DNA from: an uncultured Alphaproteobacteria bacterium | Lineage (GTDB): Bacteria; Pseudomonadota; Alphaproteobacteria; Rhizobiales; Rhizobiaceae | DNA length: 64,000 bases | Assembly: GCA_963799325.1 (NCBI GenBank) | Contig: CAWCWS010000004.1 | Location: 430,469 to 494,468 of the forward strand | Direction: 5' to 3' | In this document: one piece after another, positions 19,903-25,400 of the stretch | Layout: each line of letters starts with the position of its first letter | Position numbering within the stretch: position 1 is the stretch's first letter | Translations under genes and position numbers: made by a program | Notes under the pieces: generated by a model | The model's database searches: none | Seen by the model: only the letters and a program-made list of their open reading frames with translations | Told to the model about the DNA's origin: nothing

Positions 19903-20790
19903 GTGGCCTGTTCCCCCATCCGCGCCAGCACCATGCGATGGCCGACACCGACCAAGCGCGACCAGAGTCGCCGCCATCGCAGCGGCCACGACGAGCGCGG
20001 ACCATATCTGGATCGTCTGTCCGTAATAGGAACCAGCCAGCAAACGCGCGCCGAGACCCGCGACCGCGCCTGTCGGCATTTCACCCAACGATGGCGCCGA
20101 CCAGCGAAATGGCGACGGCGATCTTGAGCGACGTGAACAAGAACGGCAATGAAGCCGGCAATCGCAATTTCCAAAAGGTTTGCGCGCGCGAAGCGGAATA
20201 GGTGTGCATGAGGTCCAGTTGCGCCGCATCCGGCGCGCGCAGGCCCGCCACCATGCCGACGACGACCGGGAAGAACGACAGGTAGGTGGAGATCAGCGCC
20301 TTCGGCAGCAGCCCGGAAATACCCGCCGCATTCAGCACCACGATAATCATCGGCGCGATGGCCAGAATGGGAATCGTCTGGCTGGTGATGACCCATGGCA
20401 TGACGGACTTGTCCATCGCCCGGTTGTGGACGATGCCCACCGCCAGCGCGACACGCCGAGCGCCGTGCCGATGAGAAAGCCGAGCAGGGTCGCGGATAGC
20501 GTGATCCATGCGTGGTAGATCAGGCTTCGCTTCGAGAACGGCCGCCCGGCCAGCGCCATCGCGCCGGTGGTTTTCCAGATTTCCACCGCCACCTGATGGG
20601 GCGCGGGCAGAACGGGCCGGTCCTGCCGCATGGTCTCGGGGATTATTTCGGAGAATGACGGTGGCGGTGTGCCTGCCCGCTCGGCCTGATCGCGGATGAA
20701 CGGGGTGTTCAGGAAAACGGCGGCGACGTACCATATGACGAAGAGGACTGCGACGACGGTAAGGACGGGGATGGTTTTGGAGGTGTTCAT
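19899..20790 (-). pseudogene. ABC transporter permease (NitT/TauT family), about three frame switches
   Basis: MNTSKTIPVLTVVAVLFVIWYVAAVF... continues through pieces of ORFs 20081..20971, 18382..20229 and 19899..20396 (..TSQTIPILAIAPMIIVVLNAAGISG..SFFPVVVGMV..LKIAVAISLVGAIVGEMPTG..). Confidence 0.75.
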
Positions 20791-21086
20791 GCCGGACCGG
20801 GCTCCTTGTCCACGGGAGGCCAGCTGCGGGCCGTATGGACGACGAACAGTTAGTGACGGTTTGGACTGTCCGTCCGATAGACCAACCGGTAACTGGGGTG
20901 AGGGAACAGTTCGCGAGTATTCGGTAACAATCCGGGAACGCCCATCTGCGGAAATTCCAGCAGACGTTCACACGAGGAGGAAATCAAGGCGTCAATCCTG
21001 TTTGCACCCTTCGGACTTTCCTGCTGGTTGTGATCGAAGATCATGCGGCGCTGACGCTGGGCGTGTCGCGTCCAGTTCAAACGCAT
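20787..21086 (-). pseudogene. RelE/ParE-family toxin interrupted by an in-frame TAA (20850-20852)
   Basis: MRLNWTRHAQRQRRMIFDH.QQESPKGANRIDALISSSCERLLEFPQMGVPGLLPNTRELFPHPSYRLVYRTD... has the ParE pattern. After the TAA the same frame continues LFVVHTARSWPPVDKEPGPA and ends in a TGA overlapping the permease ATG. Confidence 0.65.
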
Positions 21087-21093
21087 CGTTGCT

Positions 21094-21358
21094 TCAGTCC
21101 AAAGCCACGGCCGCCGCCCGCCGTGCGACAAACTCGCTTTCCACGTCCTCGTGGGAGATAACGCGACCCCGTTCAATGTCGGTTTCGGCGCGTTTCAGAT
21201 GGTCCTGCAGGAACGCCCGGTAGTCCGGATCGTGTTCGCTCACGAACCTGGAAACAGCCGTGCTGGCCAGTTCCGCGTCAGTCAAGACTCACGGCTTCGG
21301 CTGCTCGACGAAGGTCCTGCGCAGTCTGCCGGTCGAGCGTGATGGTCAGGGTGTCCAT
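21094..21358 (-). CDS. ribbon-helix-helix type antitoxin (partner of ParE-like gene), one frame switch near 21.285 kb
   Basis: MDTLTITLDRQTAQDLRRAAEA.. (an RHH-like N-terminus at the tail of ORF 21278..21793) joins ORF 21094..21285 (..AELASTAVSRFVSEHD...AETDIERGRVISHEDVESEF..). The stop lies 8 nt upstream of the toxin ATG. Confidence 0.55.
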
Positions 21359-21387
21359 GTGAGCGTCTCCTAAGCGTGTGTGAAACT

Positions 21388-22916: not shown

Positions 22917-24378
22917 TCAAACCCCGCTCGCCGGTATGCCCGTCCGCTTCACCGGTTGCGGGTTACTCAACGCTTTCCATGAACTCAGCGCCTTGTTGAC
23001 GCTTCCGTTCGCCTCGCGCTTTACGAACTTGCCGTGGCCCTCTTTCGTCTCCACGGCACCCGTCATTCACAGCCACCACACCCCGCGTCAGCGTGTAGCG
23101 GGGCAGGCCTTTGACGTGTTTGCCTTCGAAGACGTTGTAGTCGATGGCGCTTTGCTGGGCGTCGGCGGTGATGGTCTTTTCCTTCGTCGGATCCCAGACC
23201 ACCAGATCGGCATCCGCGCCGATCAGCACAGCGCCCTTCTTCGGATACATGTTCAGAATCTTGGCGATGTTCGTGCTCGTGACGGCCACGAATTCGTTGG
23301 GCGTTAGGCGGCCCGTTTCGACACCGTGGGTCCATAGCATGGGCATGCGGTCTTCCAGACCGCCGGTGCCGTTGGGAATTTTCGTGAAATCACCAACGCC
23401 GTAGCGTTTCTGCTCGGTGGTGAAGGCGCAATGATCGGTGGCGACAACCGACAGCGAACCGGATTGCAGACCGGCCCACAGGCTGTCCTGATGCTTCTTG
23501 TCGCGGAACGGGGGGGACATGACGCGGCGGGCGGCGTGGTCCCAGTCGTGGTTGAAATATTCGCTCTCGTCGAGCGTCAGGTGCTGGATGAGCGGTTCGC
23601 CCCAGACCCGCTTGCCCGCTTGCCGTGCGCGGCGGATGGCCTCGTGGCTTTCCTCGCAACTCGTGTGGACGACGTAGAGCGGCGCGCCGGCCATGTCGGC
23701 GATCATGATGGCGCGGTTGGTGGCTTCGCCTTCAACTTGGGTCGGGCCGCGAATAGGCGTGGGCTTCTGGGCCGGTGTTGCCTTCGCGCAAGAGACGTGC
23801 GGATAGTTCGGCCACCACGTCGCCGTTTTCGGCATGGACCATCGGCGTCGCGCCCAGTTCCGCACAGCGCTGGAAGCTAGGCGTAGAGTTCGTCGTCGTT
23901 GACCATCAGCGCGCCCTTGTAGGCGAGGAAATGCTTGAACGTGTTGATGCCACGCTCCTGCACGACGGTCTTCATCTCGTCGAACACCTGCTCCCCCCAC
24001 CAGGTGATCGCCATGTGGAAACTGTAATCGCAGTTGGCGCGGGTCGATTTGTTGTCCCACATCTGGATCGCTTCGAGTAGGGACTGGCCGGGAGACGGCA
24101 GGCAGAAATCCACCACCATCGTGGTGCCGCCCAGCCAGCGCTGCGCGGGTGCCGGACTCGAAATCGTCGGTGGAATAGGTGCCCATGAACGGCATTTCGA
24201 GATGGACATGCGGGTCGATGCCGCCGGGCATTACGTAGCAATCGGTCGCGTCAAGTTCCGTGCCGCCTTTAAGGTCAGGCCCGATGGCGGTGATGATGCC
24301 GTTCTCGATCTGCACGTCAGCCTTGTAGGTCAGATCGGCGGTGACGATGGTGCCGTTGCGGATGGTGGTTTTGGTCAT
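22917..24378 (-). pseudogene. dihydropyrimidinase / D-hydantoinase, about four +1 frame switches
   Basis: The N-terminus is MTKTTIRNGTIVTADL..GGIDPHVHLEMPF. The middle is recovered from other frames (GGTTMVVDFCLPSPGQSLLEAIQMWD.., [35 protein letters not shown]). It then reads [35 protein letters not shown]. After a last switch near 23.06 kb the C-terminus reads ..GKFVKREANGSVNKALSSWKALSNPQPVKRTGIPASGV. Confidence 0.85.
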
Positions 24379-24731
24379 GGGGATTCTCCGGTCTGCCCTG
24401 CGAGTGCATAGAGGTTGAGATGGAAGGCGAGCGCAAGATCGACTTTGGCCATATCGGCGGTAGTCAACACGCCTATTTCACGGCCCAATTTTGCCGTTGG
24501 AATGGTCTGTATCTTCTCGCATTGAATATGGGGCTGCTTTTCAACCCATTGGTTTCCGTTGGATCAACGGCCACGCGAATTTCCAGTTCGTGCGAAACAT
24601 CCGACGTGATGAGGCAAATCGATATGCTTCGAACAGAGGGAGCGTGTGATCGTTTTGCACGACCAGCTCGGGCGTGGCTTCTTGTAGTCGCCACTCAACG
24701 CAATAAGGACGAGTGATCCTCGTCTTACCAT
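24375..24731 (-). pseudogene. PemK/MazF-family toxin, three -1 frame switches
   Basis: Stitching three frames gives MVRRGSLVLIALSGDYKKPRP / ELVVQNDHTLPLFEAY / SISICLITSDVSHELEIRVAVDPTETNGLKSSP / HIQCEKIQTIPTAKLGREIGVLTTADMAKVDLALAFHLNL... This matches the alphaproteobacterial PemK pattern GD..KPRPALV.Q.D...TS......V.P...NGL..S.V..DK..T....K.G. The ATG overlaps the stop of the upstream small ORF, and the TGA overlaps the hydantoinase ATG. Confidence 0.6.
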
Positions 24732-24904
24732 TCGTAGTCCGGTTCATCCCGCATGGTTTCCTCAAACAGCGCGTCGATGAACTCCAGCGTGCCGTCACGC
24801 TGGTCGGCTTCCGCGATTACGTGGACTTCGCACTGCAAGTCCTCATCGTTGATGATCGGGCGGCGCGCAACGACGGTTTCGAATTGGCGGTTGTTGGGGT
24901 CCAT
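24725..24904 (-). CDS. small acidic protein (59 aa), candidate antitoxin of the MazF-like gene; N-terminus uncertain
   Basis: ATG 24902-24904 to TAA 24725-24727 gives MDPNNRQFETVVARRPIINDEDLQCEVHVIAEADQRDGTLEFIDALFEETMRDEPDYEW. It falls below the 60-aa track cut-off. The acidic ..E.DYEW tail resembles MazE-type antitoxin C-termini. The frame is open for a further ~27 codons upstream. Confidence 0.4.
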   Translation of the reverse strand: MDPNNRQFETVVARRPIINDEDLQCEVHVIAEADQRDGTLEFIDALFEETMRDEPDYEW

Positions 24905-24933
24905 TATCTCAATTCCCTCGAAAAGTCGATCAC

Positions 24934-25400
24934 CTAAAGGACTGAATTTGGGTGCGTGCAGATGATTAAATCGTCTAGGTCGGCGTTAACGGACGAACTT
25001 CCTGAGCAGCTCTTATGCCGTTTATTGTCGCCTTTGCGAAGAGCGAGCAATTTGAAGATCAACTTCATTGAAGGAGTGACGTTCAGGGTTTTTAAGAAAA
25101 CTCGAATAAAATTGTCTGTCAAATTGGCTACGTAGAGTCAATAAACTCTCGTCAAATTAATCTCTCCATCCGTGGTTAGTTCATGCGAAACAGCGGCGGC
25201 GCCGAAAAGATCTTTGACGGTCGTTGGCCAGAACTTCCGTCAACAAATACCGTTTATCATCCCAAATCCCCCTGCAACCATTTTGTTCGCTGCAAGATGT
25301 GGGTCCAAATCCGAGAACACTGACTTCTTATGCAGTTCAATAAGGTTTTGAGTAATTGTGGCCACTTGGCTTTTGTGCGAAGATGATTTAGCAAATGACC
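24934..25400 (-). pseudogene. decayed AT-rich ORF of unknown function (one frame open for ~155 codons except two TGA codons)
   Basis: The minus-strand frame reads ..VATITQNLIELHKKSVFSDLDPHLAANKMVAGGFGMINGIC*RKFWPTTVKDLFGAAAVSHELTTDGEINLTRVY*LYVANLTDNFIRVFLKTLNVTPSMKLIFKLLALRKGDNK...ICTHPNSVL. This is far fewer stops than expected for AT-rich DNA. Confidence 0.3.

Follow-up and report, generated by a model that had tools for sequence, protein, structure and literature searches.

Intercistronic junctions of an alphaproteobacterial pyrimidine/hydantoin operon as probable exchangeable slots for small accessory, selfish and defence-type genes

Why should genes resembling toxin–antitoxin (TA) and defence modules lie one after another between the cistrons of a catabolic operon? 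The question is raised by a stretch of 64,000 nucleotides (the window) from an uncultured Alphaproteobacteria bacterium of the family Rhizobiaceae (assembly GCA_963799325.1, contig CAWCWS010000004.1, positions 430,469 to 494,468 of the forward strand), in which an initial annotation had described three TA/defence-like cassettes in successive junctions of one minus-strand operon, each ending in an ATGA overlap with the next host gene. The operon serves reductive pyrimidine/hydantoin breakdown, includes a NitT/TauT-type ABC importer, and is conserved in alphaproteobacteria. Its order is carbamoylase, (remnant of an AT-rich open reading frame (ORF) plus mazEF), hydA, (orf227), ATPase, (RHH antitoxin plus ParE), permease, with the cassettes given in parentheses. 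We refer to the carbamoylase–hydA junction as J1, to the hydA–ATPase junction as J2, and to the ATPase–permease junction as J3. The locus was compared with 80 species-level relatives, the operon scan having given at least 599 pattern-matching stretches, 583 of them confirmed relatives, and with L089, an independent assembly (ENA ERZ25039505 contig_7055) that is 93–96% identical over window positions 25802-15003. The comparison led us to consider it probable that J1 to J3 are exchangeable slots, which small genes of accessory, selfish or defence type enter through recombination in the cistrons on either side and in which they are coupled to the operon. The features of the operon and its junctions are as follows.

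25403..26665, minus strand: carbamoylase (M20 'Zn-dependent hydrolase'; N-carbamoyl-amino-acid / beta-ureidopropionase-type amidohydrolase), an intact ORF of 420 amino acids (aa)
24943..25406, minus strand: J1 cassette a, remnant of an AT-rich ORF, about 155 aa, 44% GC, whose GTG overlaps the carbamoylase TGA
24725..24904, minus strand: J1 cassette b, candidate antitoxin of 59 aa with an acidic tail, in mazE position, whose TAA overlaps the mazF start (ATGGTAA)
24375..24731, minus strand: J1 cassette b, MazF/PemK-family toxin gene, 119 codons after indel correction
22917..24378, minus strand: hydA, dihydropyrimidinase/hydantoinase, with four 1-base insertions in the window; 485 aa and intact in L089
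22190..22873, minus strand: J2 cassette orf227, a single gene of 227 aa, 42% GC against 62% for the window, whose TGA overlaps the ATPase ATG
21417..22193, minus strand: NitT/TauT-type ABC ATPase, with one deletion and one insertion in the window; 258 aa and intact in L089
21094..21358, minus strand: J3 cassette, candidate antitoxin of 87 aa with an RHH-like N-terminus and a ParD/RelB-like C-terminus; 1-base insertion at about 21286 in the window
20787..21086, minus strand: J3 cassette, ParE/RelE-family toxin gene, 99 codons, the 99-aa product being reconstructed from L089
19899..20790, minus strand: ABC permease 1 (BPD_transp_1), with three frame-breaking insertions in the window
about 19026-19898, minus strand: permease 2, following permease 1
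about 18010-19007, minus strand: NMT1-type binding protein, following permease 2

Gene order, strand and the three ATGA overlaps were as first described; the ATPase gene, which had been ended at 21388, stops earlier, at a TAG at 21419-21417. J1 (25406 to 24375) thus holds the AT-rich ORF remnant, the 59-aa ORF and the MazF/PemK gene, J2 (22916 to 22190) holds orf227 behind a 43-bp AT-rich spacer (22874-22916) that follows the hydA stop, and J3 (21416 to 20787) holds the antitoxin-like ORF and the ParE gene.

The operon's gene order is kept in the 80 loci, which belong to Rhizobiales/Hyphomicrobiales and Rhodobacterales and have carbamoylase homologues of 76–91% identity; the annotation of S. 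meliloti pSymB likewise lists rutR, a Zn-dependent hydrolase, hydA and an ABC transporter. The junctions varied in length from −11 bp to 2738 bp. Almost every junction measured about 0–15 bp in L010, L012 and L048 (one is 102 bp), and those of L072, the closest species-level relative, measured 11, 166 and 114 bp; L043, L003 and J1 of L072 are further examples of empty junctions. At the other end of the range, 52 of 74 J1, 35 of 68 J2 and 31 of 60 J3 junctions were at least 150 bp long. DNA homology between the window and four relatives (L072, L015, L001, and L002) is lost where the conserved genes end and resumes at or near the start codons at 24378, 22193 and 20790. Since the breaks fall at gene ends and relatives have empty junctions, the cassettes are insertions, and the earlier proposal that the junctions had been colonised repeatedly holds in this respect.

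The proposal did not hold in its emphasis on TA genes, because the junctions of the 80 relatives carry diverse genes and a TA module was found in only one other sampled species. Among 137 non-overlapping junction ORFs, 116 are co-directional with the operon (binomial p = 4e-17). Their Pfam hits are led by GNAT (16; all 17 ORFs of the corresponding cluster are in J3, where S. meliloti also has its copy), followed by class II aldolase (4), DUF4760 (4), DUF559/MTES_1575-type nucleases (4, or 6 by clustering), glyoxalase (3) and EamA/SMR-like proteins (3). NUDIX, GIY-YIG, UDG, DHDPS, GH114 and PemK (in Fulvimarina, L014) occurred once each, cupin genes lie on the opposite strand, and many recurrent ORFs belong to no family. 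Taken together, these results indicate that J1 to J3 are general, fast-changing slots for small add-on genes and are not specific to TA modules. Almost all clusters of junction ORFs were limited to a single slot.

Two of the junction families deserve separate mention. Genes of the DUF559/MTES_1575 type (Vsr-like) lie in J1 or J2 of five relatives, in L017 in both slots, and apart from a pair within L016 this is the sole junction family found in two different slots. In Shinella oryzae and Hoeflea loci, the J3 position just before the permease gene repeatedly holds a gene for a 111-aa membrane protein weakly similar to SMR/EamA, which overlaps its neighbours.

L017:11230-11454, L017:13018-13548, L008:12017-12547, L002:13076-13447, L026:11245-11490 and L027:13167-13550: DUF559/MTES_1575-type genes
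L081:10032-10367, L018:8146-8481, L016:16658-16993 and L027:17208-17546: 111-aa SMR/EamA-like protein

The initial annotation had assigned the three cassettes to the MazF, HEPN and ParE families. Profile searches supported the two toxins. MazF matched PF02452 (cut-off 23.1) with E 5.5e-15 and 56 bits when the frames of the window were stitched, and with E 4.9e-19 and 69 bits over profile positions 1-107 of 109 after indel correction against L089. ParE matched PF05016 (cut-off 23) with E 3.4e-9 and 37.6 bits in the window and with E 4.9e-11 and 43.5 bits after correction; its score against TIGR02385, 28.3 bits, is just over the cut-off of 27.9. The MazF and ParE assignments therefore hold. The third occupant, orf227, has no Pfam match of its own, and this solitary gene, which lacks a partner, is not a two-gene TA module.

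The small partners of the toxins are less distinctive. The 59-aa mazE-like ORF, which overlaps mazF by 7 nt, had no Pfam, PADLOC or PHROGs match; the 87-aa ORF in J3 is RHH-like by eye, and had no Pfam match and a weak NCBIfam RelB_ParD match (E 0.063). The AT-rich ORF that precedes mazEF in J1 is frameshifted both in the window and in L089, had no Pfam, PADLOC or PHROGs match, and has no homologue among the junction ORFs of the 80 loci. Several of the toxin frames are broken as well: mazF has three 1-base deletions in the window (about 24669, 24628, and 24539), and in L089 it has one 1-base insertion at a different site and the mazE ATG is lost; in the window's ParE gene, a +1 (20866) / −1 (20849) indel pair creates an in-frame TAA.

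Relatives of both pairs were found in comparable positions. The mazEF type recurs in J1 of two loci: in L090 a MazF of 49% identity (P0056) follows the carbamoylase stop and a homologous 57-aa antitoxin, with the hydA start 4 bp later, and in L014 (Fulvimarina endophytica strain 85) a MazF of 33% identity, preceded by a 73-aa ORF, has a 4-bp overlap with hydA. Another MazF homologue (P0060) lies elsewhere than in J1. Besides the copy in L089, the only ParE homologue found (P0062, 51% identical) belongs to another ABC operon, of the branched-chain type. There, at L092:6643-7320, it and an antitoxin gene separate the binding-protein gene from the first permease gene, and the ParE TGA directly abuts the permease ATG. 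A 30-nt perfect palindrome, gtactgaaaacgtatatacgttttcagtac, lies upstream of the L092 antitoxin gene, the called start of which looks wrong unless the gene is frameshifted.

The occupant of J2 is of another kind. The TTG start of orf227 is backed by N-terminal conservation with P0002, its Shinella relative. Among 5.8 billion proteins, the only ones sharing words with orf227 were orf227 itself and a Shinella oryzae protein (46–47% identical; CP081987.1); a full search of 1.84 billion representatives with a hidden Markov model (HMM) yielded a family of 52 members. In an alignment of 47 sequences, only R114 and H119 are invariant; they belong to a RNxxxHG motif (RNHLIHG in orf227), i.e., a HEPN-like Rx4H motif. 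orf227 itself had no Pfam, NCBIfam, PADLOC or PHROGs match, and its profile had no match among PDB sequences, while five of the 47 relatives matched PF18735 (HEPN_RiboL-PSP) weakly (best E 6e-4). HEPN_RiboL-PSP proteins have an Rx4-6H motif and are distantly related to AbiD/AbiF (Anantharaman et al. 2013, PMC3710099). Two AlphaFold models of orf227 were available, an earlier one with pLDDT 72.8 and one from a deep alignment with pLDDT 92.6; in the latter, long helices are predicted, with the motif ending helix 100-119, followed by a three-stranded sheet. This second model had no Foldseek match with E<0.5 in PDB. Judging from the invariant motif and the weak matches of its relatives, orf227 may be called HEPN-like. 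It shares with the HEPN RiboL-PSP or AbiD/AbiF-like branch the invariant Rx4H motif in a helical region and the PF18735 matches of 5 of 47 family members; unlike known HEPN proteins, which have an all-alpha fold of four helices, it scores nothing itself, has a predicted three-stranded sheet after the motif helix and matched no solved HEPN structure, and unlike the RiboL-PSP branch it has no MNT partner, L-PSP fusion or ParB neighbour. A plasmid or phage origin of orf227 was considered and rejected, as tblastn searches of 72,556 plasmids and 50,697 phages returned nothing. For the family member P0008, a PADLOC/PHROGs comparison gave a Cas4b match (E 0.006) that is meaningless.

In L089, J2 is occupied by an unrelated gene encoding a DUF4238 protein (PF14022, 54 bits, cut-off 27), which had no PADLOC model or PHROGs match. 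A single-gene DUF4238 system from a P2 hotspot protects E. coli against phage T7 (bioRxiv 10.1101/2021.01.21.427644). We take the two occupants of J2 to be most likely defence or abortive-infection-type genes.

Seven of the eight orf227-family members inspected (orf227, P0002, P0003, P0005, P0007, P0008, and P0020) lie between hydA and the ABC ATPase gene, although for P0005 the contig ends and the ATPase side alone is visible; P0014 is the sole inspected member outside this junction. The six relatives in J2 are 47–25% identical to orf227, and two of them abut or overlap the ATPase start. Every J2 copy has a GC content of 33–46%, against 50–64% for its host, i.e., 12–24 points lower. No member of the family occurs in any of the 80 species-level loci. 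The cassettes are not random colonists: the orf227 relatives and the mazEF type are faithful to their own junction in distant hosts.

The comparison between the window and L089 bears on how the cassettes move. The two strains differ in J2 by the swap of a whole cassette, orf227 against the DUF4238 gene, with breakpoints at the hydA stop and the ATPase ATG. Divergence is 0.6–1.3% in the carbamoylase end, mazE, mazF, the J3 antitoxin gene and ParE, 6.8% in hydA and 7.5% in the ATPase gene, and reaches 11–12% per 150 bp next to J2, falling with distance. Such a peak is the signature expected if a divergent allele was imported by homologous recombination, or if an old polymorphism has been kept with its flanks. 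The contrast of about 1% in the TA segments with 4–7.5% in the neighbouring genes bears on whether TA pairs resist displacement; recent spread into both strains and resistance of the TA pairs to replacement would both fit. A second stretch of raised divergence (5–11 substitutions per 150 bp) runs from 20550 to 19350 in permeases 1 and 2, and is separated from the J2 peak by the less divergent ATPase end, parDE pair and permease start. The two stretches suggest a mosaic of several recombination tracts.

A further trace is found in J1 of L089, where a 43-nt direct repeat of the hydA 5' end (L089:858-900 and 1471-1513, 95% identical) lies on either side of a 613-bp mazEF module. The copy before mazE, which precedes the real hydA start by 613 bp, would encode MTKTTIRNGTIVTAN, a 17-aa hydA N-terminal stub, and the AT-rich ORF ends in the TGA of this remnant ATGA. 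The window lacks exactly those 44 bp, with the deletion point at about 24942/24943. The scar would fit a donor fragment of 'mazEF + hydA start' that was joined illegitimately inside codon 15 of the recipient hydA and resolved by homology further in, i.e., homology-facilitated illegitimate recombination (HFIR); a Campbell-type insertion is a possible alternative. An integron-like mechanism was rejected, as a scan of ten flanking ORFs revealed neither an integrase nor a transposase, and the cassette ends have no attC-like repeats. The faithfulness of cassette families to their loci likewise points to flank homology rather than site-specific recombination: where recombination is anchored in conserved flanking cistrons, each family would stay in its own slot.

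The stop/start overlaps have their origin outside the cassettes. Three of them join a cassette to the next host gene: GAATCCCCATGACC at 24378-24375 (mazF stop, hydA start), AAACCCATGACC at 22193-22190 (orf227 stop, ATPase start) and CCGGCATGAAC at 20790-20787 (ParE stop, permease start). A fourth, which had not been listed before, is a GTGA at 25406-25403 between the carbamoylase stop and the start of the AT-rich ORF in J1. The overlaps are no artefacts: 4-bp overlaps at mazF–hydA, J2 cassette–ATPase and ParE–permease are also present in the independent assembly L089, and they hold after error correction. In the relatives, NTGA starts are common: they were counted in 63 of 74 hydA, 44 of 68 ATPase and 43 of 62 permease genes (65–85%), and 30 of 98 occupied junctions have an exact 4-bp NTGA overlap with the next conserved gene. 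The overlaps exceed chance only partly. The overlap is thus a trait of the operon's start sites and not of TA cassettes; the TGA belongs to the start context of the downstream host gene, and the cassette frame ends by running into it. Selection for coupling would be supported by the fact that orf227 and the DUF4238 gene, which are J2 cassettes unrelated to each other, stop at the same ATPase ATGA.

With these observations, the reading of J1 to J3 as exchangeable slots can be spelled out. The slots at this locus hold an older AT-rich ORF and mazEF (J1), a solitary HEPN-like gene (J2) and a parDE-type pair (J3). Cassettes in operon orientation would be transcribed with the operon, and no intrinsic-terminator-like site occurs on the operon strand between 20600 and 26900. 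Ribosomes finishing a cassette would then re-initiate on hydA, the ATPase gene or the permease gene, and the insertions that survive would be those that keep this stop/start coupling. Recombination anchored in the neighbouring cistrons, the signatures of which were described above, probably brings cassettes in and swaps them, either by homologous replacement or by HFIR, in which one end is homologous and the other is joined illegitimately. TA pairs may persist as addiction modules that resist replacement, and the J2 occupants may serve as defence or abortive-infection-type genes.

Several points weigh against this reading. Co-transcription and translational coupling of the cassettes are deduced from the gene layout. 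The starts of junction ORFs in relatives were taken from the longest ORF, which inflates the count of upstream overlaps. Most junction ORFs in the relatives look metabolic or unknown, not selfish. As mazF is frameshifted in both assemblies, the mazEF module may be dead or decaying, or both assemblies may be wrong. A defence or RNase role of orf227 is a guess, since the protein has no family or fold match: neither of its two models gave a Foldseek match with E<0.05 against PDB, nor did the model with pLDDT 72.8 against BFVD. The strict tie of orf227 to one operon could equally mean a function in pyrimidine catabolism or transport. Finally, either an old balanced polymorphism or one import event could underlie the divergence peak at J2, and the 43-nt repeat is a single scar in one assembly.

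A stronger version of the same idea would treat the elements as distinct 'operon-junction cassettes': promoterless selfish or defence genes confined to operon junctions, which use host transcription and the host's NTGA starts and spread 'locus-locked', without an integrase, by flank recombination, with the orf227 family obligate in the hydA–ABC-ATPase junction and TA pairs guarding the slots. We put this version forward only tentatively.

The junction genes, above all orf227, might instead be working accessory members of the pyrimidine/hydantoin operon, with a position that reflects their function; orf227 could, for example, be an RNA- or metabolite-directed enzyme or a regulator serving the pathway. 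In keeping with this, seven of the eight orf227-family members inspected, with identities as low as 25%, lie in J2, and their arrangement is co-directional and tightly coupled; many junction ORFs of relatives encode small enzymes (GNAT, glyoxalase, aldolase, cupin), and the J3 GNAT gene is common (17 loci and S. meliloti). However, we consider such a role unlikely, given that the orf227 family is rare (about 52 clusters in 1.8 billion representatives) and missing from all 80 loci, that each J2 copy lies so far below its host in GC content, that a 93–96% identical strain has the unrelated DUF4238 gene in its place, and that mazEF and parDE have no plausible metabolic role.

The initial annotation had also offered that the cassettes were co-opted as regulatory parts, their TA promoters and operators acting as internal promoters and their frames as coupling elements. 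All three cassettes do end in a coupling site, the 40–60 bp spacers before the antitoxin genes could hold promoters, and the palindrome of L092 is what would be expected of an operator. No comparable, operator-like palindrome lies upstream of either antitoxin gene of the window, however, and a scan of 20600-26900 found no sigma-70-like site against 2.8 expected by chance, a scan that is uninformative for alphaproteobacterial promoters. In addition, relatives with empty junctions couple the same genes directly, so no extra regulatory element is needed. We therefore regard co-option as improbable.

The state of the reading frames raises a further alternative, namely that this strain carries the operon as a cluster of pseudogenes in decay, with the TA/defence genes piling up as junk in dead DNA. 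Between 25400 and 18000 the reading frames are broken by about 20 indels, a density far above that elsewhere in the window; they include 1-base insertions in hydA at about 24129, 23876, 23743 and 23061, three insertions in permease 1, and one indel of 1–2 bases each in permease 2, the binding-protein gene and the antitoxin gene. In L089, however, hydA, the ATPase gene, both permease genes, the binding-protein gene, the antitoxin gene and ParE are intact, every operon gene being so alongside the same J1 and J3 cassettes. Real bacterial pseudogenes are deletion-biased, whereas 11 of the 12 frame-breaking indels (1–2 bases) in the conserved genes are insertions relative to L015 and L072; the comparison with L089 adds the three deletions in mazF. 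In a relative-rate and codon-position test of the window against L089, with L015 and L072 as outgroups, substitutions specific to the window fell mainly in third codon positions (first/second/third: hydA 3/1/20, ATPase 2/0/13, permease 1 0/0/4) and were no more numerous than those specific to L089. The third-position bias indicates that the genes have not long been drifting, despite the four indels in hydA. On the strength of the intact L089 genes, the substitution pattern and the insertion bias, the frameshifts of the window are most likely assembly or consensus errors, not decay, and the pseudogene explanation was rejected as very improbable. The errors were possibly caused by a mix of strains differing at J2; a burst of frameshifts at a strain-variable cassette would mean that the consensus of long-read metagenomes can be poor where strains differ.

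That the whole pattern is an artefact of assembly or gene calling, built from chimeric joins and spurious ORFs in GC-rich DNA, is hardly credible: the window is visibly error-prone here and high-GC DNA gives rise to many long spurious ORFs, but layout and overlaps are repeated in the independent assembly L089, the HMM matches exceed the Pfam cut-offs, and homologous cassettes sit in the same slots of unrelated samples.

The exchangeable-slot arrangement can be set beside several known systems. Type II TA loci in general are autonomous units with their own autoregulated promoter/operator. With chromosomal loci of the mazEF/pemIK and parDE/relBE types, the pairs of the window share a small antitoxin gene that precedes and overlaps or abuts the toxin gene, and toxin HMM scores over the curated cut-offs; they differ in being co-directional inside a host operon with the toxin stop overlapping a host gene start, in lacking a recognisable operator palindrome, and in having their closest relatives in the same junction (mazEF) or in the equivalent binding-protein–permease junction (parDE, in L092). 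Integron cassettes are likewise promoterless, co-directional small genes in a row, often TA or unknown genes, read from an upstream promoter, but the flanking genes scanned contain no integrase, the cassette ends lack attC-like imperfect inverted repeats, the cassettes are separated by essential operon cistrons, and their families are locus-faithful. Free-standing homing-endonuclease genes of the T4 seg/mob type resemble them as small selfish genes between conserved co-transcribed genes, and relatives of the operon hold DUF559, MTES_1575-like and GIY-YIG nuclease genes in the same junctions; the cassettes of the window are not such nucleases, no evidence of homing cleavage was found, and the host is a bacterial chromosomal operon.

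Closest are hotspots flanked by core genes, such as defence islands and P2/P4 prophage hotspots, which also combine conserved flanks with variable content in close strains, contain TA toxins, a HEPN-like gene and a DUF4238 gene, and show a divergence peak around the variable site. Unlike these hotspots, the slots of the window are three successive intercistronic junctions within one metabolic/transport operon, each slot holds one to three small co-directional genes joined by 4-bp overlaps, no integrase (in the flanking ORFs scanned), prophage or island boundary is associated with them, and cassette families keep one slot across distant hosts. Collectively, these comparisons show a layout that functions like a core-gene-flanked defence/accessory hotspot, but inside an operon, and that is neither an integron nor a set of the usual autonomous TA loci. 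Full-text searches of the open-access literature for TA modules within metabolic operons yielded no description of this layout.

If junctions of this kind are regular landing slots, they would form a reservoir of accessory genes that is mostly overlooked by genome annotation and by the mining of defence islands. The candidates that they offer include an Rx4H family without known PDB relatives, the DUF4238 alternative and several recurrent ORFs of unknown type. Selfish genes could travel without dedicated enzymes, using conserved neighbours as recombination anchors, and the NTGA starts of coupled operons may explain why inserts are tolerated.

Outside the junctions, the operon opens with the carbamoylase gene immediately downstream of npr (HPr), which belongs to a canonical Rhizobiales pckA / chvI-chvG-hprK-EIIA(Man)-npr cluster at 26736-32506. 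The npr linkage is also found in L072, where homology reaches window position 27424. Elsewhere the window contains mostly long intact ORFs, although two further genes look split. On the plus strand at 5610-11868, two overlapping ORFs of 1146 and 1000 codons, both with GH94 domains, look like a single cyclic beta-1,2-glucan synthase (ndvB/chvB) that a frameshift near 8866-9050 has divided; at 12199-15425 on the same strand, a P450 + flavodoxin ORF (656 codons) followed by an FAD/NAD-binding reductase ORF (382 codons) resembles a single fusion protein of the P450-BM3 type, broken near 14170-14277. The minus-strand gene at 15988-18045 is dimethylglycine/sarcosine-dehydrogenase-like (DAO + FAO_M + GCV_T; 809 aa in L089), and a net +1 indel near 16172-16176 leaves the copy in the window with a scrambled C-terminus.

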